NCBI GenBank assembly: GCA_023898465.1
Contig: CP060223.1
Coordinates: forward strand, 96,001-160,000
DNA length: 64,000 bases
Source of the DNA: Candidatus Nomurabacteria bacterium
GTDB lineage: Bacteria; Patescibacteriota; Patescibacteriia; HK-STAS-PATE-3
Direction of reading: 5' to 3'
The notes beneath the pieces were generated by a model. The model ran no database searches. It worked only from the letters and a program-made list of their open reading frames with translations, and had not been told where the DNA came from. Positions 1-57,759 of this stretch are shown in pieces. Within the stretch, counting starts at the first letter, position 1; each line of letters opens with the position of its first letter. Both the position numbers and the translations under genes were made by a program.

Positions 1-2
1 TA

Positions 3-728
3 CTACGCCGCAAAGGCGTGGTCAGCATCGTGGTGTTATTGGCTCTGGCGATGAGCTACGGCGTGCTCTTAACTCAACCTTTTCTTTATCAGGCACGTGT
101 GGAGCTGCTTATTATTCAGCAGCAGTCAGAGAATCAAGATTTACTCTCTGCACTTCGCGCCACTGAACAGGTTGGTAAAGGCTTAGTTGATGTTATTAGC
201 ACCAGTTCATTCTTTGATAAGGTGCTGGCAACCGACTTTCCAATTACTGATGATTTCGGCACAAATCCGGAAGAGCGTCGCTTAGCTTGGCAAAAAACTG
301 CCCATGCATCTATTTCTCAGCAATCTGGAATCTTAACAGTCACCGTGCTGCACAAGAATAAAGAGCAGGCAGCGGTGATTGCCCGCGGCGTGGCGCAAGT
401 ACTTACCACCGAGAGTCAAGAGTTTCACGGTAAGGCAAATATCATTGTGAAGGTAGTAGATGATGTCTATACCAAGCAATGGCCTGTGCAACCAAACATT
501 CTTGGTACTACCGTAGCCGCGCTTTTCTTTGGCATCATTGCCGGTGTTGGAATTGTCGCCCTCCTTCCTTTGCCAAAAGCAAAAGAAGCCGCGCCAGCAA
601 TTCGTCGTACTGAAAATGATATGAGTGGAGCAGCGCCAAGTGCGCGAAAGACTTTGCATGAAATACGTATGAAGTCGACTCCGCCTCCGAGCCTACCGGG
701 CATCGATGAAGAGGAAGACGATCTCTAA
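3..728 (+). CDS. Polysaccharide chain-length determinant-like membrane protein (Wzz/CpsC-like). 5' end probably runs off the window, because the frame is open to nt 3.
   Basis: N-terminal TM followed by a PfLYqArveLLI motif typical of Wzz/CpsC, a long soluble segment, and a C-terminal TM (VAALFFGIIAGVGIVALLPLP). Reading frame is open from the window edge. GC is about 47%. Confidence 0.5.
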   Translation, partial: LRRKGVVSIVVLLALAMSYGVLLTQPFLYQARVELLIIQQQSENQDLLSALRATEQVGKGLVDVISTSSFFDKVLATDFPITDDFGTNPEERRLAWQKTAHASISQQSGILTVTVLHKNKEQAAVIARGVAQVLTTESQEFHGKANIIVKVVDDVYTKQWPVQPNILGTTVAALFFGIIAGVGIVALLPLPKAKEAAPAIRRTENDMSGAAPSARKTLHEIRMKSTPPPSLPGIDEEEDDL

Positions 729-861
729 CACGTCGTGCATTCTCAAGGGATGGAAGAGCTTCCATCCCGGAATGAGTGCGAGACCCGTACTCTGAACGTT
801 GACAATTGAACGTATCAGGACTGGTTCCTGCATACGACGAGATAAACTTGGAGGTTTCCGT

Positions 862-2085
862 ATGCGCTGTTTGACCATGGCGTTGTGCCTTTGGCTCATC
901 TTCGTGGCCAATGCGGCGCATGCAGGTGAGTATCAGAATCTCCGACCCGGTCCGCCGGTGTTGGAGCTGGGTGCGTTTTTCGCATCAACCTTTCCCGAAG
1001 CTCTACCACAGCTGCCAGCTGGCACGGTGGTAGCACACTTCCCGTGTCCGGTGCCGGCGACATTCGTGTTTGCCGATCGGAGTCTCCGCACCTACTCACT
1101 TCCGAGTGAGGCAAAGGTGGTGGCGACGGAGCTGCGTCGGGACGATGGTGGAGCGTACTACCAGTTGCTCTATCTCCTCTCGAATAAGCAGGCGAGCTAC
1201 GCGGAGCGATTCGCGTATCCGATCTGGCTGAATAGCGATCCGGTCTACGTCCCCAACAACACCAAACTCTTGGTATTGGAACGTGGTCCCGAGCAAGCGA
1301 CGGTTGTCACTTCTGCTCCTGTGACTGCGACACCGCAGCAGCAGGGTGAAGCGATCAAGACGACGCCGGTGGTGAGAAACACGCCCGTGTCCTCTGCGCC
1401 ATCGACTGGACGGGTTGAGGGTGAGCACATCATCCATCACCCCTTCATTCGCGGGCAGCTTGATTTGAGGACGGAGTTCCTCGGTGTGAAACCCGAGAAC
1501 ATCTTCACTCATCAAGTGATTCCATCGCTTTGGCTGAACCAACACCTTGGTTTGACCGGACGTTGGGAGCGGCACGAAGCGAAGGATCTCGATCCATCGC
1601 AGGGCTGGGGAGTCGGGCTCTGTTACCGGACAGCTCCTATACATCGATTGTCGGTCGAGTACGCTCGATTGACATTTGGTGAGATGAGTTCGTCCGGGCA
1701 AAGCATTCAGCTCGTGCATTTCGAATCCAGGCTACAAACCTGGTTCCTGCATCACGAGTTGGAAGCAGAGCAGCGGGATAACGACGCGAAGGAAGTTTGG
1801 ACTCGACTACGGTCGGGGCTTGCTTTCCAAGTCGGCTATCGTAGCCGGCTGCAGATGGGCGGAGAGTTAGCTAACCTGAACTACGAACTCGTAGCACAGG
1901 ACGGCTACTACTACGTGTCTGCACTTGGGACGCGCTTCAATCGATCTCACTACGGAGCATTTGCCAGCTTGGATACCCATCTGGGTGATCACTTCCCACT
2001 ACGACTTCTGGTCGGCGGCGGGAAGGGCAGTGTTCCAGAATGGAACTACATCAATGCCGAGCTGAGACTCGGAGTTGATTTCTGA
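862..2085 (+). CDS. Outer-membrane beta-barrel-like protein: signal peptide, N-terminal domain, Thr/Pro linker, C-terminal barrel ending ...LGVDF.
   Basis: ATG at 862 lies 8 nt after GGAGG. Signal peptide MRCLTMALCLWLIFVANAAHA. C-terminal Phe and alternating hydrophobic pattern. Paralogous to the protein at 4011-5207 (shared W-VGL-YR block). GC is about 60%. Confidence 0.6.
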   Translation: MRCLTMALCLWLIFVANAAHAGEYQNLRPGPPVLELGAFFASTFPEALPQLPAGTVVAHFPCPVPATFVFADRSLRTYSLPSEAKVVATELRRDDGGAYYQLLYLLSNKQASYAERFAYPIWLNSDPVYVPNNTKLLVLERGPEQATVVTSAPVTATPQQQGEAIKTTPVVRNTPVSSAPSTGRVEGEHIIHHPFIRGQLDLRTEFLGVKPENIFTHQVIPSLWLNQHLGLTGRWERHEAKDLDPSQGWGVGLCYRTAPIHRLSVEYARLTFGEMSSSGQSIQLVHFESRLQTWFLHHELEAEQRDNDAKEVWTRLRSGLAFQVGYRSRLQMGGELANLNYELVAQDGYYYVSALGTRFNRSHYGAFASLDTHLGDHFPLRLLVGGGKGSVPEWNYINAELRLGVDF

Positions 2086-2335
2086 TGTACGAATCCTGGC
2101 CACTTGGTCAGTACTCATAACTCGTCGGGTGGTCAGGAGATCCGTAAGGATTTCTACAAAAGGACCTAAGGGTCCGCGACCTGTGCCGAACGCACACGGA
2201 GGACAACATGCGAAAGCGTGCTCCGCCGACTATCTGATGAGCTTGTGTAACTGACCATGCCCCAATCAACTTGTTTGGGGCTAGGGATTAACCTGCCCCG
2301 ACAACAAAAAATTGGGGCAAGCCAAGGAGGAAGCC

Positions 2336-3625
2336 TTGTTCAAGCTTCGCATCAGCGCGATCTTCGCGCTTCTCATCCTTCTGGGTGCCGGTCTCTATGG
2401 CTGCGCTCAGGAGCCCATCGTGTTCCAGCCCGATCAGGATGTGCCGACCGATCAGCTGCCGGGCGATGGCACAGCCACGCTCAGTCTGCAGATCGGCGGC
2501 GTACCGGCCCAGCACAATGGAGGCGCTTCGAGTGCTTTCATGGTGACCAATACGGTGCAGGTGATCGGCAACATCTTCCTCACCGGTGACCGACTGGACA
2601 CCGAGTGGAAGATGCAGAACTGGAGCAGCGGCGATGTCCAAATCCAGACCATGAACGGTCGTTGGTATTCGGTCGCTCCTTCGGTCGACGGCAACGTCCA
2701 GATCACCAACTTCCTCATCAACGACATCCAGCCGCAGCATTTCGTGCAGCTGGATGAGATGAAGGGGATCTTCGCCCAGGTCAAGCTGTTGCCGGATTCG
2801 TCTGGCTTCCAGTTGTATCAGCTCGAAGACAACCGGGATCAGCTGATGACGGTGCACTACCGAGTCTACGATCCTGCCCCGGCTGACTTCCAGGGACTCC
2901 AGATCGTGGGAACTTCCACGAACTGGAATCAGATGTATCCGGAGGCGATCTACAGCTCCGACTACGGTATCTGGGAGTGGTGGGGTCCGGCGTTGAAGGC
3001 GAGCGGCAACAAGGTCGCTTTCCGGATTCGCGGAAGTGGGGCTCTGCCGACCTCGTATTTGATCACTGCCCAAGGCGAAGTGAACGGTACGCCGGTTGGT
3101 GAAGAGGTCCAGCTCGACTGTACGGAGTTGGTGGAGAACGTGAATACGTACTTCGCCAGCACGACCTGGTTCACCGACCGCGGTTGGTTGGCTGGGAAGC
3201 GAGTCTACCGACTCATCATCCACGAAGATGGTGGTATCGAACAGGGATGCGGAGGCATCCCGATTCAGACGACCATCTCGATCACGAACAACCGCATTCC
3301 GCAGGATCACCACCTGATGTGTGTCTACGACGGCTACAACGACAATCAGCCGTTCGAGATTCCTCGGGTGAGCGGCAAGTGGGAAACCACGCAGATCACG
3401 CTCCATTCTGGTCCGGCGGCTCTGTCGGTCTGGGATACGAGTGACGGAGACAAGCCGATCATCACCACGGTGAAGATCGGCAGCCAGGAAGTGAAGCACC
3501 TCGAAGTGTTTCAGGATCCTGGTTCGGAGCCGACGGTTCACTTCACCTTCGTCCTTGGCGAGGGTCCGACCCTGCAACAGGGGACGGACAATCGCACTGG
3601 TACGATCGGAGGAGAGAACTACTAA
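2336..3625 (+). CDS. Lipoprotein (lipobox LYGC) with a possible CBM/starch-binding-like segment.
   Basis: TTG start 6 nt after AGGAGG. Signal peptide plus LLGAGLYGCAQ lipobox. Segment QIVGTSTNWNQMY...WEWWGP...VAFRIRG resembles CBM20/48-type glycan-binding modules. Confidence 0.55.
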   Translation: MFKLRISAIFALLILLGAGLYGCAQEPIVFQPDQDVPTDQLPGDGTATLSLQIGGVPAQHNGGASSAFMVTNTVQVIGNIFLTGDRLDTEWKMQNWSSGDVQIQTMNGRWYSVAPSVDGNVQITNFLINDIQPQHFVQLDEMKGIFAQVKLLPDSSGFQLYQLEDNRDQLMTVHYRVYDPAPADFQGLQIVGTSTNWNQMYPEAIYSSDYGIWEWWGPALKASGNKVAFRIRGSGALPTSYLITAQGEVNGTPVGEEVQLDCTELVENVNTYFASTTWFTDRGWLAGKRVYRLIIHEDGGIEQGCGGIPIQTTISITNNRIPQDHHLMCVYDGYNDNQPFEIPRVSGKWETTQITLHSGPAALSVWDTSDGDKPIITTVKIGSQEVKHLEVFQDPGSEPTVHFTFVLGEGPTLQQGTDNRTGTIGGENY

Positions 3626-3663
3626 TCGCCAGCCCTGGGAACGCTGACGATTGCACATTCTTG

Positions 3664-3702
3664 CCCCGCCCGCTACAACACTTTGTGTTGAAGCGCGGCG
3701 GG
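3664..3702 (+). terminator. Rho-independent terminator.
   Basis: GC-rich hairpin ccccgcccgc...gcgcggcgggg followed by cTTTCTTTT. Confidence 0.6.
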
Positions 3703-3781
3703 GCTTTCTTTTACCTTGGCAGGATGGAAATGTAACTAGTCTTCAAGTTCTGATGTTTGTTGAAGCAATGTTTCGTAGGGC

Positions 3782-3810
3782 TTGACAAAATAGCACTTTT
3801 CCTGCTAAAG
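3782..3810 (+). promoter_or_regulatory. Sigma70-like promoter. Its -35 context gcTTGACAaaat is shared with the promoter at 7944.
   Basis: TTGACA at 3782 with a 17 nt spacer to cTAAAg. Confidence 0.4.
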
Positions 3811-4010
3811 TTCGCCGTTAACCAATGCGTAAAACCATCTAAAAAACGAACATTTTTACCACAACGACCTTAGTCGTTTGTGCTACTTATGGACATGAAT
3901 GGCTTGAGAAATGCCTAGCATTCCTCAACCGATTCTGGACCGGAAGTACTGCAGTAATTGTCATTCTTTGACAATTGAATTCAGAAGTCATTCTCACAGA
4001 GGAGGGTCTC

Positions 4011-5207
4011 ATGCGGACCTGGTATGTGGTTCTTGCGCTACTGGCGCTCGTCTCCTTTGGGTCCGCTCGGGCCCAGGTCATCGAAATCCCGATCGACTAC
4101 GTCGCGACGGATTCGGTGATTGCGAACTGGCCGCATCTCAACATCGGGGGCAACCCGGTGTACAAGAGCGGCTACCCGGCTGATTCCTTGGCAGTACATG
4201 CTGCTCGGGACGGCTGGTTCAAGACGACCTTCAACTTTCCCGTCGGGATCTACTGTCTCGATAAGGATGGGAAGATCATCAAGGGACGTGTCGAACCCGG
4301 ACAAACCATGAAGAATGGTGCCCGGGCCGATACGCTGATCGTGTCTATTCTAGCTGAGACGCCGGAGCAGACGCTGTATCAGATCCACGTTATTCAGGCG
4401 TGCGGTAACCCCGTGCTCTGGTCAGGCGTCGGTGTGTTGAAAGCACCGAAGCCGACTGGCCCACTGCCGCCGCCAACCCTGACTGTTCCGAAGCCCCCAG
4501 CACCACCTCCCATTGCGGAGACGGAGCCGCCGATCGTAGTAGAGCCTGAAAAACACTTCAGGCTACCGATCGATGGTTGGGCTGGAGTGGCAGGAAGTAA
4601 GTCACTCGAGTCCAAGGCTTGGTCGCTCTTCGAGGGCGTCTACATCGACTTTCCGTTGATCGTGGACAAGCTCACGTTCAAGTTTGGGGCGGCAACGTCT
4701 CAGGCAAACTACGAGAAGCTCCGTGGTCGGACGAGTTACCGAGGTGTTGGCGGCGATATGAGTCGCTGGCAAGTCGGCCTCTTCTACCGGCCTTGGGACA
4801 ACATCCAGGTTACCGGCCTGATTGGTCAGCAGTATGACCATAAGGCTGGCGACTGGCAGGATGGCGTCCAGCTGGAAGGAGTGCTGGGTTTCCCCATCGG
4901 TCGCTGGTGGAACGATGAGGATGTCAGCTACGGCACTACGACCAAAGCACTTTGGTTCCGCACTCGACATGCCTACAAGCTGTCGGGTGAAGGAATGCAT
5001 TGGTGGTCGATCGGCGGCGAGTTTGTCTATGACTCGTTCATGGACAACGATGGTCGATTCTACACTTCGCGCGTTCACGTATTTGGGAAGCGAGAGTTTC
5101 CCGGATTCTGGAATCGCGAGGCTGTCTTCATCTTCGGTGGCGGAAGAGGGAGTAAAGACGAGGCTTGGGGCCTCATAGCAGAACTAGGGCAGCGGCTCTG
5201 GTTCTAG
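4011..5207 (+). CDS. Outer-membrane beta-barrel-like protein, paralog of 862-2085; Pro-rich linker; ends ...GQRLWF.
   Basis: ATG lies 6 nt after GGAGGG. Signal peptide MRTWYVVLALLALVSFGSARAQ. PPPTLTVPKPPAPPP linker. C-terminal Phe. Motif RWQVGLFYR aligns with GWGVGLCYR of the paralog. Confidence 0.6.
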   Translation: MRTWYVVLALLALVSFGSARAQVIEIPIDYVATDSVIANWPHLNIGGNPVYKSGYPADSLAVHAARDGWFKTTFNFPVGIYCLDKDGKIIKGRVEPGQTMKNGARADTLIVSILAETPEQTLYQIHVIQACGNPVLWSGVGVLKAPKPTGPLPPPTLTVPKPPAPPPIAETEPPIVVEPEKHFRLPIDGWAGVAGSKSLESKAWSLFEGVYIDFPLIVDKLTFKFGAATSQANYEKLRGRTSYRGVGGDMSRWQVGLFYRPWDNIQVTGLIGQQYDHKAGDWQDGVQLEGVLGFPIGRWWNDEDVSYGTTTKALWFRTRHAYKLSGEGMHWWSIGGEFVYDSFMDNDGRFYTSRVHVFGKREFPGFWNREAVFIFGGGRGSKDEAWGLIAELGQRLWF

Positions 5208-5221
5208 AAGGGAGATTCCTG

Positions 5222-6385
5222 ATGCGTTTTCTCCGTTTCATGGCCGCTGCGCTGTTGCTGCTCGGTGCCTTCGGGTGCCAGAAGCTCCCCAGCGAGCCGA
5301 TCGACACCGGTGGCAGTCAGCCGCCGCAGGAGTACAACGGACCTGAGTCTGGTCTCGCGCTCAACTTCGAGCGTGGCGCCGGACAATACGAATTCGTTTC
5401 CGACATGTTCATCCATCAGGGTGGCGTGACGGATTGGGCGACTGTAACAGTCAACCCGGATAACTTCTTCCTCACCACCTACGCTGGACACTGGTATAGC
5501 GACATGCTGACCAGGGACGGTGTGCCGGTGCTGGGAGACTACACTCTGGCCGGTTCGACTCCGTCCAACTACTGGATGGATGAGAACCGCGGTGTTTTCG
5601 CGAGCCACATGGTTCTCGTCAGCGACGCTGACAGTGCCTGGGTCTGGCAGTGGCCCTCCAATGCCAGCCAGTTGGTCGACCTCGACATCGAGGTGCTCAA
5701 CTGGTCATCGGCAACGGATCTTGGCGTGGTCGGTACGCCGACGTGTTACGTCGTGCACCCGGCCATGTTGAACCACTTGCATGACAACGTCTACGGACGC
5801 TCGCTACGCCTCCTGCCCGGTGATGCCAAAATCGCTGTGATGGATATGTACGAGCGAGTTGGTCTGGGTGATGCAGTCACGGTCCGTATCAACGGCACCG
5901 AGCTGGTCGCCTACGTCGATGACTTCACGCATGACAACCAGCCGACGGTACATCGTTACTTCCGCTTTCACGTGAACGCGGATGGGACGGTGAGCTCGAT
6001 CGGTACTGAGAACCGATTCTCGTATGGGAACACGGTCTCGGTCAGCAATTCCAATATCGATCCCAGCGCTACGGTGTATCTCAACGGCACAGGCCTCACC
6101 AACGGTGAGATGATGCCGATGACCTATGTCGGCAGCTGGACCTGGCAGCTCACCGGTCTCACGACCTGGGTGGGCGAGCAGGATTTGAGGGTGAGTATGG
6201 AAGACGGGACTGGTGTGTTTCGTACCGTTCGCTTGAACGGAACGGAGTTGCACCACCTGGCTGCCGTGCCGCTCGACCCGGATCCTCCGATCCAGGTCTT
6301 CCGATGCACGCCCATGCATGACCACACGGTGATGCAGGGCGAGGACAACCGGGCCGCTGACATCGGCATGGAGACCGGCGGATGA
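5222..6385 (+). CDS. Lipoprotein (lipobox LGAFGC).
   Basis: ATG after AGAAGGGAG. Signal peptide MRFLRFMAAALLLLGAFGCQ. High GC. Confidence 0.55.
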   Translation: MRFLRFMAAALLLLGAFGCQKLPSEPIDTGGSQPPQEYNGPESGLALNFERGAGQYEFVSDMFIHQGGVTDWATVTVNPDNFFLTTYAGHWYSDMLTRDGVPVLGDYTLAGSTPSNYWMDENRGVFASHMVLVSDADSAWVWQWPSNASQLVDLDIEVLNWSSATDLGVVGTPTCYVVHPAMLNHLHDNVYGRSLRLLPGDAKIAVMDMYERVGLGDAVTVRINGTELVAYVDDFTHDNQPTVHRYFRFHVNADGTVSSIGTENRFSYGNTVSVSNSNIDPSATVYLNGTGLTNGEMMPMTYVGSWTWQLTGLTTWVGEQDLRVSMEDGTGVFRTVRLNGTELHHLAAVPLDPDPPIQVFRCTPMHDHTVMQGEDNRAADIGMETGG

Positions 6386-7869
6386 GCGAAGAAGGTGATG
6401 CGACAAGTCGTGAGGTGCCTCCCCAAGTAAGAGAGGTACTTCGCCAAATGCAACGAGTCGCGAAGAGAGATCGCAAAAAGAAGGCGAAGCATCGAGCCCG
6501 CAGAGAGGAACGGAAAAAACAGGCAAAGGCAAGAGTGAAAGCTCGAACGGGTGAGCAGTCAACAGGTTCTCCAAGGAAAGGAGATGAACCTCGTCGTCCT
6601 GTTCCGCCGCCTCAGCCTGCACCAAGTGCTTCGCCGTCCTACGCATCTCTACTGGGAGATAAGCTTGGGGGAATTCCTCAAGTAAGACGAAATCCGAAGA
6701 GAGCAGAAACAAACCTGGGAGGCTCGCCGAGCTTCCCCCAAGATGAGGAGGGTCATGTAATGCCCGAGGTGTCCATGCGCGAAGAAGGAGGATCGAGGAA
6801 GCTTTTGATTGCCACTGTGGCGATCTTGTGCGTCCTCTTGGTCGGGGTGCTGATCTACACGCATCCCTGGAGTCCTCAGCAAGGTCTGACGGAGACCGAG
6901 GTGTCGGATATGATCAGGGAGTTCGCTGATCAGATGCCGGCTCCGGTCGCTGAAATCCCCGATGACGTGGTACGCAAGGGTGACCTTGCTTCGATGCAGC
7001 CGGCGGCGATCACTCTCAGCGCTTTCGACGAGACCTATCTCGATACGCTGTGGGCGACGGTCAAGGATCCGGTGACCGGGAAGATCGACTCGACGATGGT
7101 CGTGAAGACCCGGACGAGGAATCCCATCACTGATTTGCAGAAGGACGTGAAGAGTACCAATGCCGAGGCTCGTGCAGCCAAGGTTGCGGCACGGAATGCG
7201 GAGAAGCGTCTCAAGGAGACGCCGACCCAATTCGCCGTGACCGTGCCTTCGACTTCCACATCGACTTCGCTTCACCAGCCTGGTGGAGTGCAGTTGGGTG
7301 GTACCACGACCACGACGGCGCCTGTGCAGATGACGACTCGAACGAGTACGCAAGCCGGGCTGGTGGCTGGTACGATCGGAGGTGGTTCGCCGCCCCCGCC
7401 GCCGGCTAGCAACGTCGCTGTGTCCATGACTACCACGATGGTTCCGGCCGGTGAACAGGTGATGGGTGGGGACGGCTTGATGAAGCAGGGTCCGGCCGTT
7501 GCCTTTGTCTACAACGGTCAGACCTACGTTCGTCGGGATCTGGTGCAGCGCAACAAGTACGGCGACCCGATCAACCCCAGTCGAGCTGACCAGAACTTCT
7601 ACGTGATGGCCGGCGAGCAGGGGATGAACTGGAAGCTCGTCAATCCGGCCAAGCAGAAGATGACGGTCCAGGGCGACTATTTGGTCTGGCCTGGCGTGAT
7701 CAAAGGTCCTTTCCAGGTCGGCTGGGTGGATCCGAACGACCCGGCCTACATGCCTGAAAGTGGCGTAGTCTGGGCTCCGATCGCTGAGTTCTACTCCGGC
7801 TACGACGGGACCTTCTGTCGTGACCCCGACTATCAGTTGAGGGCTGTGGCGATCCAGCAGATGCCGTAG
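6382..7869 (+). CDS. Membrane-anchored protein with a Lys/Arg-rich N-terminal tail, one TM, a Thr-rich linker and a conserved C-terminal domain shared with 8047-9225. An alternative start exists at 6760.
   Basis: ATG at 6382 overlaps the upstream stop. An in-frame ATG at 6760 has a very good GGAGGG RBS. TM LLIATVAILCVLLVGVLIY. C-terminal about 120 aa shares ~45% identity with the 8047 protein. Confidence 0.55.
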   Translation: MSEEGDATSREVPPQVREVLRQMQRVAKRDRKKKAKHRARREERKKQAKARVKARTGEQSTGSPRKGDEPRRPVPPPQPAPSASPSYASLLGDKLGGIPQVRRNPKRAETNLGGSPSFPQDEEGHVMPEVSMREEGGSRKLLIATVAILCVLLVGVLIYTHPWSPQQGLTETEVSDMIREFADQMPAPVAEIPDDVVRKGDLASMQPAAITLSAFDETYLDTLWATVKDPVTGKIDSTMVVKTRTRNPITDLQKDVKSTNAEARAAKVAARNAEKRLKETPTQFAVTVPSTSTSTSLHQPGGVQLGGTTTTTAPVQMTTRTSTQAGLVAGTIGGGSPPPPPASNVAVSMTTTMVPAGEQVMGGDGLMKQGPAVAFVYNGQTYVRRDLVQRNKYGDPINPSRADQNFYVMAGEQGMNWKLVNPAKQKMTVQGDYLVWPGVIKGPFQVGWVDPNDPAYMPESGVVWAPIAEFYSGYDGTFCRDPDYQLRAVAIQQMP

Positions 7870-7897
7870 TCCGCGACTGCAACGTTCTTTACTTCAA

Positions 7898-7936
7898 CCC
7901 CCGCTATATCTACGGATGTAGCGGGGCTTTCTTTTT
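7898..7936 (+). terminator. Rho-independent terminator.
   Basis: Hairpin ccccgctatatctacggatgtagcgggg followed by cTTTCTTTTT. Confidence 0.7.
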
Positions 7937-7943
7937 ACTATGC

Positions 7944-7972
7944 TTGACAAAATGCCAAAAATAGCATACTAT
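7944..7972 (+). promoter_or_regulatory. Sigma70 promoter.
   Basis: TTGACA, 17 nt spacer, TACTAT. Confidence 0.55.
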
Positions 7973-8046
7973 AGCCGGTTCTTTTTGCACCTCACAATCT
8001 AGTTACACAAGCGAGAGACACTACACATCCCAACCGGGAGGACTAC

Positions 8047-9225
8047 ATGCTCCAACGTTTCTTTGCGTGGTCTTTGCTGGCGCTCTTCGCCTTCGGCTGT
8101 GCCGGAGGTAGTGCCACGCTGAAGCAGCATCAGCAGCCCGTCGGGCAGGTCTACGTGGGCGACTGCGTGCCGTCGGATGGCATTCATCCGACTGGCTACC
8201 TTCGCCTGACCAAGCCGCCGGAGGACTTCAACTCGATGCTGTCGATGTGGCACGCTGTTCAGGCCGAGGGTTCATCCGAGCCCTCGAAGATCGAGGTCGA
8301 CTACATCCGGGTCTACGCCCACGTAGCCGGCCGCGATTCACTGCTCGACAGCGACGAGTACAACGACATGATCGGGGACGGAGGTCTCTATCTTCGTCAT
8401 CCCTCGTGGTTCTACAACGATGACCATACGAGTCTGCCCTGCGAGTTCGACATGGTCAACGGTTACTTGGTCTTGCGACCGAGCGACTACCCGGATCGAG
8501 TCTTTCACTGGTGGAATTCCTACCATCCAGCGGAGGATGTCTGGCGTGTCACTATTCCGGCCGGTGCTACCAACTGCTGGGCAGAGACTCGGATTCGGAT
8601 TACGGGTCCAGCCTATGTCCAGGGCGGCATTGACTACTGGCGTTCACTCACTGCTCCGTACGGCGGCGTCGAAGTGAACAACCGGGAAGCCTGCATGTCC
8701 AACTGGACTTGCTCGGCTGATCCGGGTTGGCAGACCATCGTGGTTGGTAAGGACAAGCCGCAGGGCGACAGCGCTGTGGTCGATGCCGATGAGAACGGGA
8801 AACCGAAAGTCGTCCAGGCTCCGGTCTACGATCCTTTCGAGAGCAAGGCCGACGGTCTCCTCAAGAAAGGCGCTGCTGTCTGTTTTGTACAAGACGGACG
8901 CACCTACTTCCCGAAGGAGATCGTGGCGACGAACAAGTACAGCGATCCGGCTCGCCCCAAGAATGGCAAGTACTACTTGCTGGGCGGGGTGAAGCCATGG
9001 GCTATCGCCGGCGACGATCAAGAGCTCCGGGAAAACGGGGATTACCTCTACTATCCCGGCGTGGTCGACAAGGTGTGTCAGGTGGGCTGGGAGGATCCGG
9101 CCGACGCTTCGGCCGATCCGTCCGGAACCGTATGGAGCGCTTCAGCGGAACTTTTCTCGGGTCGCCCGGGATCAGTTTCGAAGAACGGTCAGTACGGCTA
9201 CCTGCCAGTCAATCTCTCCAACTAG
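8047..9225 (+). CDS. Lipoprotein carrying the same C-terminal domain as 6382-7869.
   Basis: ATG lies 7 nt after GGGAGG. Lipobox LFAFGCAG. C-terminal block GLLKKGAAVCFVQDGRTY...NKYSDP...GDYLYYPGV...QVGWEDP...GTVW...AELFSG aligns with the 6382 protein. Confidence 0.6.
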   Translation: MLQRFFAWSLLALFAFGCAGGSATLKQHQQPVGQVYVGDCVPSDGIHPTGYLRLTKPPEDFNSMLSMWHAVQAEGSSEPSKIEVDYIRVYAHVAGRDSLLDSDEYNDMIGDGGLYLRHPSWFYNDDHTSLPCEFDMVNGYLVLRPSDYPDRVFHWWNSYHPAEDVWRVTIPAGATNCWAETRIRITGPAYVQGGIDYWRSLTAPYGGVEVNNREACMSNWTCSADPGWQTIVVGKDKPQGDSAVVDADENGKPKVVQAPVYDPFESKADGLLKKGAAVCFVQDGRTYFPKEIVATNKYSDPARPKNGKYYLLGGVKPWAIAGDDQELRENGDYLYYPGVVDKVCQVGWEDPADASADPSGTVWSASAELFSGRPGSVSKNGQYGYLPVNLSN

Positions 9226-9240
9226 GAGAAGGTGATTCAC

Positions 9241-9277
9241 CCCGGTGCATGCAATGCGTGCGCCGGGTTTTCTTATT
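9241..9277 (+). terminator. Rho-independent terminator.
   Basis: Hairpin cccggtgcatgcaatgcgtgcgccggg followed by TTTTCTTATT. Confidence 0.7.
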
Positions 9278-9304
9278 GACCATGGGCAATATTTTTGCTA
9301 TAGT
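9276..9304 (+). promoter_or_regulatory. Sigma70 promoter.
   Basis: TTGACC, 17 nt spacer, TATAGT. ATG at 9335. Confidence 0.55.
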
Positions 9305-9334
9305 CGCCTGTTCACTTTCTTTTACTGAGTTGTA

Positions 9335-11107
9335 ATGTTACGCAATATTCTTGTCATTCTCGGACTCGCCATTTCACTCACCAGCTTCACGCCAAAGCAG
9401 GAGAGTCGCGATGGCGTGTATGCGTTTACCACGCCTCCTTTAAGTATTGGTCAAGGAGTGGTGGTGACAAATGATGGCATTGTGATTGGCGATGGCGTGA
9501 CTGATTCCCGGCAAGGAATACAGGAGCTGCTTAGTGGTGATGACTTGGAACATTTTCTTGACCAAAGCTCTCAGCAGTTTGATGCCGTAGAGCTGCGTAT
9601 CTGGACATGGTTCCTGGGTCAAAACGATTTTACTATTGGCACGGTGAATAATTTCCTTGCCCGTGCTCATGCCCACGGCTTGCAAGTGTACTTAAATACT
9701 TGGGAATATCCTGGCACACATCCCGACCTTCTGCCTGCTGAGTATCAGGCATATAAACTTGCTGACACCGGACAACGCGTGCCGGCCCTAGTGAATGATG
9801 GACAAATCAGCGCGCAGCACATTGATAAAGCAAACCCCGCTGCACTGGAATGGATGAGTGGGCAACTGCGGAGTGCGCTGACTTCTTTTGACGTTTTCGA
9901 TGGATACCTCATTGTTGAGGATAGGGTTTCCGATTGGGTGCATGGGTCTTTCCCACAGTATGTACGTTATTGGGATTCACCGACCTATTCCGATGCAGCG
10001 CTTGATTCATTTCAACATTATCTCCTACTGCATGGTCAGGATGCAACACAGCGATTCCCAGTGGATCGTCCGGAGTTAGTTTCTCAATTCACCCAGTATG
10101 TTCCTTCAGCCCCAGAAAGTGCTTTATGGAAGTATTGGTATCAATGGCGCTTTGAACTTTTTGCTGACTATGTGGAGAGTCTGAGTAATGCGGTGAAGTC
10201 AGTGCAAAGGGTGCCAGTGCTTTACATGCCTTGGCAACGTGTGGTGGATGAATTTGATTACGCCTACGCTGATGATTGGTCAGCCAATCGTTGGGATGTT
10301 GGATACGGTCCGGGCAATCCCGAGAATGCCATCTTCGGCGTCTCGCTTCACACCCTGGCAAAACGCGGATCAATTGATGCCTACGTGCATGAATTTGGAG
10401 AGGATGGTACGCATGAGCTCTGGCCAATGTCTTTTAATGCGCTGCAGTTAGAAAAAGCCAAAATTGCTTTGTCAGATTCTTATGTTACCCTAGGCAGCTT
10501 TATTCAATTTTTTAATTACGAAGGTAGAGAAATAGTTTCCCCTGAACTACTTCAAGATGCCTTAGCCATCGGACGGCAAAACGAGGCAAAGATTTTTGTA
10601 GCTTACGATGTTGCCACACTGTATGATCGTTCAGGTCGCTATGATGCACATACCTCAGCGCTTTGGCAGCAAGCAAGAACACATGCATATGCCATTGATG
10701 AAGAGGAAATCCGAAACGCAAGTCAGCTAGCGCCAGCGCAGGTTTTTGCTCGAAAATTACCTGAACAGATTCCAGAAGGAGTGGCCGCCTGGACTGCCGA
10801 TGATGGGTATGTGTATGTGCGGACCGAGGCTCTGCCCGGTAACGGACCATACTATGTCGTATACGATCACTGGAATGCACCACTACTTGATGCGCAGCAC
10901 CTTATGGAATACTATCCAGAGCATGGTTTAGTCGCTATACATGCTGATGGGTTAAAAGGCGCTGCTTTTCAAATCATTACTCCGGGACCGCAGGGTAGCG
11001 TCGCGTGGTCAGAAATTCGTGAACAGCTTTGTGAGCTGGGGTATCAAGGGATCGTATGTAGCCCAAATAGTTGGCTTTATCAACCAGTGGGGCTTCATTC
11101 CATGTAG
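9335..11107 (+). CDS. Secreted hypothetical protein, 590 aa, possibly a glycoside-hydrolase-like TIM barrel.
   Basis: Signal peptide MLRNILVILGLAISLTS. No family recognised with confidence. GC about 50%, intermediate between the island and the host. Confidence 0.5.
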   Translation: MLRNILVILGLAISLTSFTPKQESRDGVYAFTTPPLSIGQGVVVTNDGIVIGDGVTDSRQGIQELLSGDDLEHFLDQSSQQFDAVELRIWTWFLGQNDFTIGTVNNFLARAHAHGLQVYLNTWEYPGTHPDLLPAEYQAYKLADTGQRVPALVNDGQISAQHIDKANPAALEWMSGQLRSALTSFDVFDGYLIVEDRVSDWVHGSFPQYVRYWDSPTYSDAALDSFQHYLLLHGQDATQRFPVDRPELVSQFTQYVPSAPESALWKYWYQWRFELFADYVESLSNAVKSVQRVPVLYMPWQRVVDEFDYAYADDWSANRWDVGYGPGNPENAIFGVSLHTLAKRGSIDAYVHEFGEDGTHELWPMSFNALQLEKAKIALSDSYVTLGSFIQFFNYEGREIVSPELLQDALAIGRQNEAKIFVAYDVATLYDRSGRYDAHTSALWQQARTHAYAIDEEEIRNASQLAPAQVFARKLPEQIPEGVAAWTADDGYVYVRTEALPGNGPYYVVYDHWNAPLLDAQHLMEYYPEHGLVAIHADGLKGAAFQIITPGPQGSVAWSEIREQLCELGYQGIVCSPNSWLYQPVGLHSM

Positions 11108-11135
11108 GGAGTTCTTTGTCAGAGGAGGAGTGAAT

Positions 11136-11600
11136 ATGCAGTGGAGGTTGTGGATCTACGTGTTGGCTTGCGTACTGTGCGCATCGCAGTCTGCGTACGG
11201 TCAGTCTGAGCAATTCCAGCCAATGTACAGCATAGCGCCAGAGTATCCACTTTCAGCGTGGATTGCTGGTGAGTCTGGGTCGGTGATGGTGGGAATGCAG
11301 ATTGACCCGGTCGGCCGTGTGGAGGAGGTCTGGGTTCAGTCTTCAACAAGCTCGTTGTTTGAGCGGTATGCGCTCGAGGCGGCGAAGCAGTGGGTTTTTG
11401 TACCGATCATGCCCATGGTGGATCTGATCGACGCGGTGGATGGCGTTATGGTCTTGCGTAGAATTCCGGAGCTTGAAACAGCGAGTTACCTGGAAACACA
11501 TCCGGGAATCATTGACAGTCTCGTCTACGAGTGGACGGAAAAACAGGACCAACCGTCCCCGGTCCGTAGCGTCAGTATCCCTTTCAATTTCAACCACTAA
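11136..11600 (+). CDS. TonB C-terminal-domain protein, short form.
   Basis: ATG 7 nt after AGGAGG. Signal/anchor MQWRLWIYVLACVLCASQSAYG. Block SIAPEYPLSAW..GESGSVMVGMQIDPVGRVEEVWVQSS..LFERYALEAAKQWVFVP matches the TonB_C fold signature (PxYP...G.V.v.f.id..G.v.dv.v..S....LD.aAl.av..w.f.P). Confidence 0.5.
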   Translation: MQWRLWIYVLACVLCASQSAYGQSEQFQPMYSIAPEYPLSAWIAGESGSVMVGMQIDPVGRVEEVWVQSSTSSLFERYALEAAKQWVFVPIMPMVDLIDAVDGVMVLRRIPELETASYLETHPGIIDSLVYEWTEKQDQPSPVRSVSIPFNFNH

Positions 11601-11634
11601 GTACGAGCCGCTTATCCTCTGGGTAGGCGGCTTT

Positions 11635-11832
11635 CTATATATTCAAATCAAGCGATTGAATCAAGACAGGCAGAAGAAGCAGTACGCCAATCAAGGGGAG
11701 TAAGAATAAGAGAAGGTTGGCAACTAAGGACCATAGGAAATATTTCCGCGTTTTTTCTGTTGACTGATAGATGGCCTTGAGTAAAGCATCTTGATCATCA
11801 AGTCGTTTTTTTAGTTCGTCGTCCATATGCAT
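11635..11832 (-). CDS. Small membrane protein, hypothetical.
   Basis: ORF with hydrophobic C-terminal half, immediately downstream of 11832-12221. Confidence 0.3.
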   Translation of the reverse strand: MHMDDELKKRLDDQDALLKAIYQSTEKTRKYFLWSLVANLLLFLLPLIGVLLLLPVLIQSLDLNI

Positions 11833-12221
11833 TAACTTAAGAAATCAAGGTAAATGCCAATAAGAATGGCCAGTGTTGAAGAGGTAAATATGACAATATA
11901 GTTCCAGCGTTCTTTCGATGAGCCAAGCGTTGTAAAGATATAACGCATTGCAGATCGCTCTTCCTCTGATAGGTTATCAAGTGATTGAATACGTTCAGCG
12001 AGCTTATATTCAGCAATGACACGCGCTCTTTTTTTCGCAACTTGGTAACGATGCAAAAAATAGAGCACAAAACCGACCGTACCAAAATACCAGACCACTT
12101 GCACCCAAACTGTTCCGATATTGTTCAGTACAATAATACTGCGATAGGCGATGGTGGCAAGTATGCCTATCCAAAAAAAGAGTAAGCGAAGTCCTGCCGA
12201 ATGAGGTTTCAAGGTTTCCAT
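11832..12221 (-). CDS. Membrane protein, hypothetical (3-4 TM).
   Basis: ORF with several hydrophobic helices, adjacent to the flavodoxin gene. Confidence 0.4.
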   Translation of the reverse strand: METLKPHSAGLRLLFFWIGILATIAYRSIIVLNNIGTVWVQVVWYFGTVGFVLYFLHRYQVAKKRARVIAEYKLAERIQSLDNLSEEERSAMRYIFTTLGSSKERWNYIVIFTSSTLAILIGIYLDFLS

Positions 12222-50613: not shown

Positions 50614-53600
50614 ATGAGTATGAAAAACGTTGTACCGGAAGGGGAATACAACCCAGCAAGTATTGAAGCAAAATGGCAGGAGCACTGGAACAAAAAACCA
50701 GATCAGGCTAAGGATTTTGCGCATGATCCAAAGCGCTATCTTCTCATTGAATTTCCTTACCCCTCAGGTGATGGACTGCATGTGGGGCATGTGCGAAGCT
50801 ATGCCGCTCTCGATGTGTTGGCGCGTTATTCTCGCTTAAAGGGTTTTAATGTGCTTTACCCCATCGGCTGGGATGCTTTTGGTTTACCCACCGAGAATTA
50901 TGCGATTAAGACTGGCGTACACCCACGTGTTGCGACTGATAAGAATATTGCCACCTTTCGCCGCCAGCTTAAGGCGCTAGGCCTTTCATTTGATTGGTCT
51001 CGAGAAGTGGATACAACAGATCCAAAATACTATCGATGGACACAGTGGATTTTTTTGCAGTTCTATAAGGCAGGCTTAGCCTATCAGGCAGAGATTCCTA
51101 TTAACTGGTGTCCAAAAGATAAAATCGGTTTGGCCAATGAAGAAGTGGTTGATGGCAAATGCGAACGCTGCGGCACTGAAGTAACGCGTAAAATGCAAAA
51201 GCAGTGGATGTTAAAAATCACCGCCTATGCAGATCGCTTACTACGTGATCTCGATACAGTTGAGTACGTTGAAAAAATTAAAACACAGCAGAAAAACTGG
51301 ATAGGTAAGAGCGAGGGTGCTGAAATATCTTTTCAAATAGCTAGTAAGGAGTCGCAAAAACCTCGCTTCGTACTTCTCCATGGTTTTCAGGGCTCAGCTA
51401 AAGGTAACTTTTTCCCATGGCTAAAAGATGAGTTGGTCGCAAAGGGCTATGAGGTGGAAGTACCTGAATTACCAAACAGCGCTCATCCGACTGAAGAGGA
51501 ACAGGTAAGTTATGTACTTGAACATTGTCGCTTTGATGAAAACACCATCGTGTTTGGTCATTCGCTTGGTACAGTCGTGGCCATGAAGGTTATAGAAAAG
51601 CTTCCCACAAAAGTAGCTGGCTTGGTTATGGCCGGTGGATTTACCCAGGCTGATTTTTCTGATCACGATCGACCATTCCGCGATACCTTTACATGGAATT
51701 TTGATTTCCAGGCGATTCGAGATAAAGCAGGTTTTATAAAAGTGCTACATGACGTGCATGATGATGCCGTGCCCGAGGGAGCTGGAGAGGCTTTAGCAAA
51801 AGCGCTCGAAGTGCCGTGCTACAAGGTGACCGCAAATGAAGAGCATTTCTGCGCAAAGCAAGAGCCTTATCTATTAGCGCATCTCATGCCAAACACACTT
51901 TTGGTTGGTACGCAAAATCAGGCAAAGGTGGAAATGCTTCGACGAGCATTGGCCCCTTACCCAAATATTCACCTCATCAGTTTAAGTGATATTGGTAAGG
52001 TCGATGATCAGGCTTTAGTAGAGGGCGATGACTTTCGTGCTAATGCAAAAATGAAAGCAGATTTTTATCACCGAGCCACAGGTTTACCAACCATATCGAC
52101 GGATCATATTCTTTGGATAGAGAAATGGCCTGAGGATAATGGCTTCATTACGCATATTCGCAAATTAGCAAATCCGAAATCTGGACGAGCAACAGATGAA
52201 GAACTAGCAGAATGGATAAAAAAATTTATCGATAAAAATGGTGAGTCGCGTACAGCCTTTCATTATGCTATTGGTTATGCCGATGAGAAGGGAGTGCAGG
52301 GCTTTGTGAGTATTCAGCGCGAATACATGTTGAAGGCTAATCCGGCTAAAGCACGATGGGAAGGCTATGCGGTCGGTGCATTTTTGCGTGACCCCGTGAC
52401 TGATGCGTATCGAGAAGAGATGCCCGCAGAGATCGCTTTTGATCGCTTCTTCGCCACAGTGCGCAATGAAATTGTGCCGCAGGTTTTCGATATGAGCACC
52501 TTGACGGTCTTTACCACACGACCCGATACCATCTTCGGTGTCACGTATATGGTTGTAGCCCCTGAACATGAACTCCTTGCCAAGTATCAATCACACATTA
52601 CAAATTGGGATGAAGTTCAAAAGTATGTGCGAGAGGCCGCCAAGAAATCCGATATGGAGCGGACCGAGTTGGCCAAAGAAAAAAGTGGCGTTGAGCTCAA
52701 AGGTATTCAGGCAGTAAATCCGGCAAATGGTGAAGTAATCCCGATTTGGGTAGCTGACTATGTGCTGAGTTCTTATGGCACCGGAGCGATAATGGCTGTG
52801 CCGGCGCATGATCAGCGAGACAATGAGTTTGCAAAAAAGTACTCCCTGCAAATAAGAGAAGTAGTAAGAGGTTTTAATCGTGTAGGAGAGAAAAAAGATA
52901 TTGTATATTCTGGCGAGGGGGTCCTAGTAAATTCTCAGGACTTTGATGGAGAAAAAAGCGAAGACGCAAAAAAGAACATTGTAAGGTGGTTAGAAGAAAA
53001 AGGACTCGGTCATTCAGCAGTCAATTTTAAACTTCGCGACTGGGTATTTTCACGTCAGCACTACTGGGGCGAGCCGATTCCGATTATTCATTGTCCTAAG
53101 TGCGGAGCTGTTCCAGTGCCGGAGAAAGACCTACCAGTGGAATTGCCTCATGTAGAAAAATACCAACCCACTAATACTGGGGCTTCACCATTAGCTGCGA
53201 TCGAGGATTGGGTGCAGGTGAAATGTCCGAAGTGTAAGGGCGAAGCGAGTCGAGAAACCGACACCATGCCGAATTGGGCCGGGAGCTCGTGGTATTTCCT
53301 GCGCTATTCGGATCCGCACAATAGTAAAGCCTTTGCTGATAAGAAAAAGCTAGAGTATTGGCTGCCGGTGGATATTTACAATGGTGGCAATGAGCACACC
53401 ACCCTCCATTTACTCTACTCGCGTTTCTGGCATAAGTTTTTATTTGATCAGGGCTTGGTACCAACTCCAGAACCATACCAGCATCGTCATTCGCATGGGA
53501 TTGTGTTAGCTGAGGATAATCGCAAGATGTCAAAGAGTTGGGGGAACGTGGTCAATCCGGATGATTATGTGCAGGAGTACGGTGCAGATAGCGTGCGCAT

Positions 53601-56886: not shown

Positions 56887-57759
56887 TTGGCTTTTCAGGG
56901 GGAACAACCAGGGGAGAATGACAATACAAAGCTTTTCAATAATGCCCCAGAGCAAGGTAATCAGGTTCCGCCTGAGCAAAGTGGCTCGCGGGGCTTTTTT
57001 ATTGCGTTAATTTCCTTTGGCGCAGTTGGGCTTTTGCTCGGAATTGTGAGCTTGGCAAAGAATATTCAGTCACCTTTTGTACCAAATGCCAACCTCATTG
57101 CGGTGCAGCAGGACACCAATCAAGAAAACATCTCTGATTTGCAGCAAAGAGACACGGATGGAGATGGGTTAAGTGATTACGAAGAACTTTATCAATACAA
57201 CACTAGCCCGTATTTAGCTGATTCTGACTCGGATACCATTGATGATAAGAAAGAAATCGAGAGTGGAAACGATCCGAATTGTCCAAGTGGCCAGGATTGT
57301 ACCGGATTAGGCGTAAATACAAACACGAGTACAGTTGACGATGCATTGGGGCTTACTAATAGCTCCACCAATACATCCGCGACAAATACCAGTACGAGCA
57401 CGAGTGCGGTTGATATGGCACAGTTGCGTGAAGTGTTAAAGGCCTCGGGTGCTCCTGCCTACGTCGTGGATTCAACCGATGATGCTACTTTGCTTGAGCT
57501 TTACAACGAATTAGTAGCTGAGCAGGGTGGTGACTCGCTTGATACCAACTCGACAGATACAAATGCGAGTAACACGTCGACTGTTGATGACGCTACCACC
57601 TTACAACTTCTGCAAAGCTTATCAGCCAGCGAGATACGCGCACTTCTCATTCAAAGTGGCGTTGATCAATCATTAATCGATCAAGTAGACGATTCTGAGC
57701 TGCAGCAAATATTCCTTGATGCAGTGCAATCCGAGTTTTCCTCTGACTCCTCATCATGA
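56887..57759 (+). CDS. Secreted/anchored acidic Ser/Thr/Asp-rich protein with a thrombospondin-type-3-like Ca-binding repeat.
   Basis: TTG start. TM FFIALISFGAVGLLLGIV. DTDGDGLSDYEELYQYNTSPYLADSDSDTIDD. Confidence 0.5.
   Translation: MAFQGEQPGENDNTKLFNNAPEQGNQVPPEQSGSRGFFIALISFGAVGLLLGIVSLAKNIQSPFVPNANLIAVQQDTNQENISDLQQRDTDGDGLSDYEELYQYNTSPYLADSDSDTIDDKKEIESGNDPNCPSGQDCTGLGVNTNTSTVDDALGLTNSSTNTSATNTSTSTSAVDMAQLREVLKASGAPAYVVDSTDDATLLELYNELVAEQGGDSLDTNSTDTNASNTSTVDDATTLQLLQSLSASEIRALLIQSGVDQSLIDQVDDSELQQIFLDAVQSEFSSDSSS

Follow-up and report, generated by a model that had tools for sequence, protein, structure and literature searches.

Two related barrel and lipoprotein gene pairs preceded by a conserved motif in a proposed envelope locus of a small Parcubacteria clade

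Two genes, here called A and B, in a 64,000-nt stretch of a Parcubacteria genome (contig CP060223.1; the stretch is referred to as the window) encode exported proteins with C-terminal regions of beta-barrel type, and both are preceded by an identical 12-mer. This locus raises the question of what was duplicated to produce the two genes and what the 12-mer does in front of each. A first-pass annotation had proposed that the proteins are paralogues and that the 12-mer marks duplicated promoters or a shared operator. Coordinates are those of the window unless prefixed by the label of one of the related loci compared (L001–L019); L008 is the locus of the window genome itself, with coordinates that run beyond the 5' end of the window.

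Gene A (862..2085, + strand; USN53622.1) encodes a protein of 407 aa and starts at the ATG at 862 with GGAGG in front, while gene B (4011..5207, + strand) encodes 398 aa and starts at the ATG at 4011 with GAGGAGGG in front. In both open reading frames (ORFs) an AxA-type signal peptide is followed by an N-terminal domain (N-domain), a linker rich in Pro and Thr, and a C-terminal half with Phe as its last residue (LWF in B). The deposited form of B (USN53624.1) is a 288-aa version without the signal peptide and most of the N-domain. A strong Shine-Dalgarno sequence precedes the 398-aa form, which all orthologues share. Neither A nor B had a match in Pfam (at E <= 0.1) or NCBIfam.

Relatedness of the two proteins could not be seen by pairwise BLASTP of A against B, which was not significant (E 0.11), and a first, shallow profile comparison was ambiguous (68%). 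The alignments were extended with orthologues from related contigs (alignment A3) and from an exhaustive hidden Markov model (HMM) search (alignment A4). Comparison of the A family with the B family by hhalign gave a probability of 99.5% (E 3e-22, 351 columns), so the proposed paralogy held at the level of profiles. The block L.GR...(G/R)W.VGL.YR was present in both proteins and aligned by hhalign, as were the signature positions W-R-R, GGE, G-G-[KR]-GS, E and the terminal aromatic residue across both families. When the domains were compared separately, the barrels alone gave 98.7% (E 2e-16) versus just 17% for the N-domains; based on these profile comparisons, the barrels of A and B are homologous, and homology of their N-domains is not demonstrable.

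A different pattern was found between A and its homologue P0001 (window 862-2085 versus L007 1097-2281), which were 72% identical in the first 145 residues and 34% identical in the barrel. To judge from the sequences, this would represent either a mosaic or a fast-diversifying barrel. The nucleotide similarity of the two genes ended at about residue 78 and returned in the spacer that follows A.

The AlphaFold2 model of B (mean predicted local distance difference test (pLDDT) score of 70, about 80-90 in the barrel) contained a beta-rich N-domain of just ~110 aa (residues ~36-143), a disordered, Pro-rich linker (147-185) with pLDDT below 50 and no helix, and a barrel of 12 antiparallel strands (188-396). 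Foldseek searches with this model matched integral outer-membrane barrels exclusively, with KdgM and NanC, both 12-stranded oligosaccharide channels, among the best matches. Residue faces alternated along the strands (hydrophobic 0.64 versus polar 0.29), and the terminal aromatic residue that is typical of substrates of the beta-barrel assembly machinery (BAM) was found in all family members.

The family is very rare. A HMMER search of 1.84 billion representative proteins identified 12 family matches, three of which (P0012-14) had the same barrel with a different N-domain. This domain was borderline LysM-like (19 bits versus a cut-off of 20.9), and we did not adopt a LysM identity for it on the strength of this score. 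Another two of the 12 (P0015 and P0016) had the B-type N-domain and Pro linker joined to a C-terminal transmembrane helix, with no barrel. Profiles of the barrel family and of the lipoprotein family described below had no match among Protein Data Bank (PDB) sequences (E <= 10 for the barrel profile), and a search of metagenome contigs with the profile of alignment A1 found no related locus.

The duplication was not confined to the barrel genes. A is followed by L1 (2336..3625, + strand; TTG start, lipobox LYGC) and B, after only 14 nt, by L2 (5222..6385, + strand; lipobox AFGC). These lipoproteins were similar by BLASTP (E 1e-10 over 345 aa) and aligned over their full lengths in a family alignment of 15 sequences (A5). 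The order A-L1 then B-L2-X was found in every related genome with two barrel genes. X (6382..7869, + strand), the product of the last gene of the B operon, is anchored in the membrane and combines a coiled-coil/Thr-Pro region with a C-terminal domain that is conserved. X occupied the same position in all loci, and a terminator follows it at 7899-7926. The duplicated unit is the gene pair of barrel and lipoprotein, kept together in all genomes. A more distant genome, L019, had one barrel-lipoprotein-X module, which is likely the ancestral state.

Gene neighborhoods pointed to the cell envelope. Upstream of A is a gene for a Wzz/CpsC-like polysaccharide co-polymerase (1..728, + strand, with the 5' end before the window; full gene L008 5954-6718), for which TIGR01006 gave E 5.6e-8 and GNVR gave E 0.005, neither of them reaching its curated cut-off. 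A Wzz-like gene was found directly upstream of the A-type barrel gene in every locus whose contig reached that far. In L019 the module is followed by genes for a Wzy_C protein, a MurJ/MATE flippase and glycosyltransferases. Together with the KdgM/NanC structural matches, the Wzz/CpsC-like gene and the L019 cluster suggest that this is an envelope module connected with surface polysaccharide.

The taxonomic setting makes these genes unexpected. By exact sequence match, the window belongs to a contig of 1.08 Mb deposited for 'Candidatus Nomurabacteria bacterium', a Parcubacteria genome of the Candidate Phyla Radiation (CPR); its GroEL was 72-85% identical to GroELs labelled Patescibacteria or Parcubacteria where they were named, a few being labelled just "bacterium". 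The two closest GroELs are located on the same contigs as the related clusters L002 and L001. In three assemblies the cluster is thus in physical linkage with housekeeping genes of CPR type. The contig of L001 and L005 (CAZWTD010000006.1) is titled "uncultured Gammaproteobacteria bacterium"; it carries a GroEL 83% identical to the CPR GroEL of the window and has the same synteny as the window, and this label is probably wrong. According to published reports (PMC6744442, PMC7137472, PMC12102498; bioRxiv 10.1101/2021.05.31.446380), CPR bacteria have no outer membrane and no TonB-ExbBD, PilQ or outer-membrane proteins, a view based on genomics and cryo-EM (PMC6744442, PMC7137472, PMC12102498), and a family of outer-membrane-type barrels is unexpected in them for this reason. 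The first-pass annotation of the duplication had missed this host, the downstream lipoprotein as part of the unit and the long structured leader of B described below.

The two copies of the 12-mer (TTGACAATTGAA) were confirmed on the + strand, copy 1 at 799..810 in the Wzz-A intercistronic region and copy 2 at 3968..3979, which is about 150 nt into the leader of B and is followed after 20 nt by the Shine-Dalgarno sequence. Both had been placed within 60 nt of an ATG, which was approximately right: copy 2 starts 43 nt before the ATG of B and copy 1, slightly beyond that limit, 63 nt before the ATG of A. No further copy was found in the window, even with one mismatch. The identity of the two copies ends at 12 nt, without a base of extension on either side.

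A repeated 12-mer alone is ordinary here, which would speak for a functionless chance repeat: the window has 200 same-strand maximal repeats of at least 12 nt, nine of 100 shuffles had two or more matches of the 12-mer, and the match stops at 12 nt. It is the position and conservation of the 12-mer, and not its mere repetition, that make it non-random. With the window's 12-mer as a fixed query, orthologous upstream regions of other genomes had it with two or fewer mismatches in 6/14 cases and with three or fewer in 11/14, against a background of 10 matches in 209,106 positions (binomial P ~6e-12). The motif precedes all 16 of the A-type and B-type barrel genes examined, in about ten divergent genomes with proteins only 27-47% identical, and nowhere else in those loci. 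Equivalents of copy 1 were found before the A-type genes of L002, L007, L010, L016, L017 and L019, and equivalents of copy 2 before the B genes of L001, L002, L010, L013, L014, L015, L016 and L017. The A orthologue of L002 is just 28% identical in protein, yet has the exact 12-mer upstream. This fixed-query test and an out-of-sample site in L019 refuted the chance repeat, to which we now assign a negligible probability.

The consensus of the motif was yTGAyArYT followed by a more variable tail, giving an element of about 9-14 nt. A position weight matrix (PWM) built from 15 instances scored 14 bits or more at barrel-gene sites only, plus one stray match, and found the out-of-sample site of L019, where the protein is just 27% identical. 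In L018, whose barrel gene is of the LysM type, it found no site upstream of that gene. Within a genome, the A and B copies were slightly more alike than copies from different genomes (permutation p 0.05). The stray match, upstream of a flavodoxin gene in L001, has no conserved counterpart in L016 or the window. With TGATAAT-like variants of the motif and a nearby TonB_C gene, it had brought a Fur box and an iron regulon into consideration. These were rejected since the flavodoxin match is unconserved, the TonB_C protein is merely a secreted domain and the inverted repeats near the motif are unlike 7-1-7 boxes. A -10-like or sigma-dependent pause reading of GACAAT was also rejected, as the final T is C at five sites, and the motif did not fit an integron attC core (GTTRRRY), nor was there an integrase.

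The locus has canonical promoters away from the motif. After L1 there is a GC-rich hairpin with a T-run (3663..3712, + strand), terminator-like as read from the sequence, with equivalents in L001, L010, L014 and L016. It is followed by a sigma-70-type promoter of the B operon (3782..3811, + strand; TTGACA-18-TAAAGT with TG), the top promoter-like site in our scan. The arrangement TTGACA-N17/18-TAAGGT was found 208-244 nt before the B start codon in seven loci, each time after the L1 terminator hairpin, and a second canonical promoter (TTGACA-17-TAGTAT; L008 5313-5341) precedes the TSP3-Wzz-A operon. In L002 and L003 an insertion sequence (IS) element with an rve integrase (L002 4487-5377, - strand) lies between L1 and the B promoter, and the promoter, leader and motif are intact. 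Because the canonical promoters are ~185 nt upstream of copy 2, in the ~190-nt leader of B, and ~1.45 kb upstream of copy 1, in the Wzz-A intercistronic spacer, the motif copies lie inside transcripts.

The B leaders are structured. Two hairpins were common to nine loci, with 87.8% of positions paired and 11 covarying pairs; none of 500 shuffles reached these values, and slid controls gave 32-46%. Hairpin H1 (3901..3930, + strand) has ten pairs, eight of which showed compensatory changes across nine sequences. Hairpin H2 (3956..3976, + strand; AAUUGUCA-UUCUU-UGACAAUU) has the 5' part of the motif as its 3' arm, and equivalents of it in other loci had covariation and G-U pairs. These G-U pairs are on the sense strand of the B leaders and therefore point to RNA. 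Upstream of A the motif core was placed differently, in a hairpin loop (window and L002) or in a 5' arm (L016 and L017); in the predicted fold of the window's A copy the core is in the 8-nt loop of an ACGUU/AACGU hairpin. In the window, both motif regions had better folds than their shuffles did (z -3.3 and -3.0). We rejected the idea of one conserved RNA hairpin that holds the motif, because loci differ in whether the motif occupies a 3' arm, a 5' arm or a loop. Because its placement in hairpins differs between the B and A leaders, the conserved feature is the primary sequence and not one structure. Rfam 15 covariance models had no relevant match at E <= 1 in window positions 1-12000.

A second conserved element was found in the spacer between A and L1 (2095..2137, + strand; CCTGGCCACTTGGTCAG ... 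GGTGGTCAGG), which is nearly invariant in seven loci (elsewhere L001 690-740, L002 2910-2960, L007 2290-2335, L010 6170-6220, L016 6322-6372 and L017 6255-6305). It reads CCTGGCCRCTTGGCCAG ... CGTCAAGTGGCCAGG after the A stop codon in all seven. RNAalifold predicted a 14-bp stem, with one-sided and G-U changes only and no compensatory double changes. As modeled, the spacer can form either a local CTGGCC/GGCCAG hairpin or the long-range 14-bp stem, an attenuator-like choice. The element had no Rfam match.

Based on these observations, we give about even odds to the following explanation: that the locus holds two anciently duplicated modules with a shared cis-element that acts after transcription initiation, within a Wzz-linked envelope locus of a small Parcubacteria clade. 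Each module, A-L1 and B-L2(-X), would consist of a Sec-exported protein ending in a 12-stranded barrel of the outer-membrane type and, beside it, the gene of its cognate lipoprotein. The modules would be part of a Wzz-linked cell-envelope locus, probably for a surface polysaccharide, that is confined to this small CPR clade. The motif would be a shared cis-regulatory site read after initiation, most likely an RNA-level operator through which a trans-acting protein or small RNA sets how the barrel mRNAs are translated or how stable they are. It may otherwise control elongation, as ops does, and either mechanism would place both modules under joint control. The paralogy of the barrels and of the lipoproteins, the barrel fold of B, the conservation and specificity of the motif, its lack of promoter features and the covarying leader hairpins are shown by the present data; the membrane location of the proteins, their link to polysaccharide, and the level and factor at which the motif acts are inferred. 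Our order of preference for the motif is an RNA operator, then an ops-like elongation site, then a DNA roadblock site.

The main proposal of the first-pass annotation was that of duplicated promoters; each barrel gene would then have its own, with the 12-mer as the -35 box. Its first six bases are the perfect sigma-70 -35 consensus TTGACA at 11 of the 16 sites, and the genuine promoters of the locus also start cTTGACAAa. Beyond the hexamer this likeness was lost: at a distance of 16-18 nt none of the 16 sites had a -10 hexamer better than 4 of 6, A2 and T6 were both present in just two of them, and the promoter scan reported nothing at either 12-mer. Five sites have CTGACA or CTGATA, and conservation runs 3' into AAyT. 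The positions are also incompatible with translation signals, as the implied transcription start would lie inside the coding region in L002 (a 5' untranslated region (UTR) of -8 nt for its A gene) and at most B sites would leave a UTR of 4-12 nt, which removes the Shine-Dalgarno sequence; in all, eight sites have implied UTRs of -8 to 12 nt. Since the canonical promoters with a -10 box (and TG) are elsewhere, 208-244 nt upstream of B in seven loci and before TSP3-Wzz-A, we abandoned duplicated promoters as an improbable explanation. A promoter for an alternative sigma factor of another kind would be a remote possibility. An extracytoplasmic function (ECF) sigma promoter was considered, as GAAC...CGT flanks the A copy, and rejected because the spacer is just 10-13 nt and unconserved. 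The other half of the proposal, a shared operator, stood in the broad sense of a conserved cis-element specific to both modules, located in leader and intercistronic RNA and not at a promoter. Whether such an operator would be read as double-stranded DNA, by a factor that blocks elongation into the barrel genes or binds near an unrecognized promoter, is a matter on which the evidence is divided. A strongly conserved primary sequence with no single RNA structure would suit this, as would the variation at positions 1-8, which consists of transitions only, and the partial TGACA/TGTCA inverted repeats near the motif in several loci (window B AATTGTCA-N5-TGACAATT, L016 A TTGACAA-N4-TTGTCAA and L017 A GTTGAC-N5-GTCAAC). 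However, the repeat partner is upstream, downstream or absent, with differing spacing and polarity, which is ill suited to one dimeric protein; all copies have one orientation, on the sense strand; the A site is ~1.45 kb from its promoter; and no conserved DNA-binding protein was found in the neighborhood. We consider a DNA operator rather unlikely, and a stronger candidate than the promoter.

Base composition raised the further possibility that the motif is a recombination or cassette boundary and the modules exchangeable cassettes of foreign composition. GC content at third codon positions (GC3) was 63-76% in A, L1, B, L2, X and the third lipoprotein gene downstream of X (862-9225) versus 43-51% in Wzz, Y, groEL, pps and leuS, with the jump at motif copy 1. 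The L019 module (6001-9032) was 54-57% GC between flanks of 40-44%, again with the motif at its left edge, and the mosaic of A and P0001 would also be explained. Against this, gene order and flanks are alike in all genomes, the right-hand edge has no matching site, the B copy is inside an operon leader with conserved promoter spacing, and no integrase or recombinase is conserved beside the locus, a serine recombinase and the IS element being present in L002 and L003 only. A cassette boundary thus seems as improbable as the promoter. A mis-assembled foreign GC-rich island was rejected by the same synteny in independent assemblies; transfer from GC-richer relatives is one possibility for the composition of the module genes. 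The remaining alternative concerns the proteins, which may not reside in a membrane of the cell itself and may instead be soluble or secreted beta-barrels, or be delivered into the outer membrane of a Gram-negative host. This would agree with the reports of CPR cells without an outer membrane (PMC6744442, PMC7137472, PMC12102498; bioRxiv 10.1101/2021.05.31.446380), with the transmembrane helix at the end of P0015 and P0016, which is in the style of Gram-positive surface display, and with the moderate hydrophobicity of the lipid-facing residues (0.64). On the other side, the fold matched integral outer-membrane barrels only, the terminal aromatic residue of BAM substrates is conserved, the borderline LysM-like, wall-binding N-domain of distant relatives recalls tethers between outer membrane and wall, and no delivery system was evident. 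We regard a location outside the cell's own membrane as possible but doubtful.

Several observations also weigh against the explanation that we favor, of duplicated modules with a common post-initiation site. Neither a regulator nor a small RNA or NusG paralogue was found. The motif is presented differently in different leaders, so that no single RNA structure explains it, and the data are fitted about equally well by a protein that binds the motif as double-stranded DNA and acts as a roadblock repressor. The within-genome co-variation of the copies is weak (p 0.05, five genomes). The model of B was built on six sequences and, because the model of A failed (pLDDT 28, two-sequence alignment), the barrel of A follows from homology to B only. 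Wzx/Wzy genes adjoin the module in L019 only, and L1, L2, X and Y matched no polysaccharide-export family (Pfam; for the lipoprotein family also PDB). Such a barrel is also hard to place in bacteria reported to have no outer membrane, TonB-ExbBD or PilQ (PMC6744442, PMC7137472, PMC12102498).

Comparisons with known systems placed the barrels near, and not within, described families. Barrels of 12 strands akin in fold include the translocators of the autotransporters BrkA (3qq2) and Hbp (3aeh), the KdgM/NanC/VhGalP oligosaccharide porins, the COG4313 channel, FapF, the intimin/invasin beta-domain and PcoB. Identity to known 12-stranded barrels was just 7-14%, no Pfam or NCBIfam model matched, and the host phylum is regarded as having no outer membrane. 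B has the C-terminal 12-stranded barrel of a type Va autotransporter without a match to the family model (PF03797), and in place of a helical linker in the pore and a large passenger it has a disordered Pro-rich linker and a ~110-aa N-domain. It likewise had no match to the KdgM/NanC model (PF06178) and carries an extra domain, and it is without the C-terminal passenger that intimin and invasin have in addition to LysM and a 12-stranded barrel.

Pairs of a barrel and an adjacent lipoprotein are known from Slam/TbpB (type XI secretion), SusC/SusD, LptD/LptE, PelB/PelC, PgaA/PgaB and AlgE/AlgK. As in those pairs, the barrel gene is immediately followed by the lipoprotein gene; here the pair is duplicated as a unit, and the barrels have 12 strands versus 14-26. 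No DUF560, TPR, SusD, LptE or other partner-family signature was found in the A and B modules (Pfam; for the lipoprotein family also PDB), so that the likeness to Slam, a 14-stranded DUF560 barrel with an N-terminal TPR, extends to lipoprotein adjacency only. Composite translocons of an outer-membrane polysaccharide export (OPX) protein and a beta-barrel serve Wzx/Wzy-dependent polysaccharide export (PMC9601211, PMC9603273). The present locus may resemble them in that the barrel gene directly follows a Wzz-like gene, putatively of the polysaccharide co-polymerase (PCP) type, and, in L019 only, the module is contiguous with genes for Wzy_C, a flippase and glycosyltransferases. However, L1, L2, X and the third lipoprotein had no Poly_export (PES) or SLBB domain, nor any other Pfam match (E <= 0.1), and the likeness of the Wzz-like protein to the Gram-positive CpsC type is weak (32.5 bits, cut-off 296). 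Barrels of OPX/barrel systems have 18 strands, and these translocons operate in true diderms.

The closest analogy for the motif may be ops/JUMPStart and other leader elements read by NusG paralogues of the RfaH type, UpxY or LoaP, which are short, orientation-specific and located in transcribed regions of envelope and polysaccharide operons. By this analogy, the motif would resemble ops in its length of ~12 nt, its fixed orientation, its location in leader or intercistronic RNA, its repetition within the locus and its lack of association with a promoter. Its sequence is unrelated to ops (GGCGGTAG). The scanned proteins of the window, which covers 64 kb of the 1.08-Mb genome, gave no KOW or NusG match, and no NusG paralogue was seen in the loci.

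A small CPR clade may thus make genuine 12-stranded barrels of the outer-membrane type with lipoprotein partners, in modules co-regulated by a new leader element, a proposition that we put forward tentatively. If this speculation is correct, the clade could have an unrecognized outer lipid layer, across which a polysaccharide made by Wzx/Wzy would be exported. Alternatively, an episymbiont could insert the barrels into its host's outer membrane as a pore for attachment or feeding, with the Pro-rich linker spanning the wall as a tether. In either case an unannotated family with the fold and C-terminal signature of BAM-type barrels, linked to CPR housekeeping genes in several assemblies, would offer a testable handle on the envelope architecture of at least one CPR clade and on contact between episymbiont and host. 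Defined cis-regulatory elements that span a clade are rare in CPR bacteria, whose gene regulation is essentially unstudied; the conserved motif and structured leader would be one such case. If the barrels are not membrane proteins, the locus would be a lineage-specific duplicated operon with a shared regulatory site, of modest interest.

Downstream of X is the gene of a third lipoprotein (8047..9225, + strand; lipobox AFGC), which has an X-like C-terminal domain and its own promoter at 7944-7972. This domain (..G.TY......Y..G......W..), which had no family match, recurs also in an extra lipoprotein of 186 aa in L001 (6191-6751). The next gene, Y (9335..11107, + strand), encodes an exported protein of 590 aa, with its own promoter at 9276-9304, orthologues of 613-618 aa in L001, L002 and L016, and no family match in Pfam. 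It is followed by a gene for a 154-aa protein of the TonB_C fold (11136..11600, + strand; L008 17126-17590; Pfam TonB_C E 3e-11). This protein consists of a signal peptide and the TonB_C domain only, without a membrane anchor or Pro-rich arm, and is not a canonical TonB; TonB-ExbBD is reportedly absent from the phylum in which this secreted domain occurs.

Upstream of the TSP3-Wzz-A operon, L008 4020-4925 encodes a 301-aa membrane protein with an extracytoplasmic region and HAMP but no output domain, which is conserved in the window genome, L016 and L017. Far downstream, window positions 56887-63896 hold the gene of a second TSP3-repeat protein (290 aa) and then that of a 2046-aa protein with CBM_4_9 carbohydrate-binding domains, which may be another surface or adhesion locus. 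The leucyl-tRNA synthetase of 1194 aa encoded at 50614-54198 has an alpha/beta-hydrolase domain (residues ~250-450) within its catalytic domain, before the editing domain.

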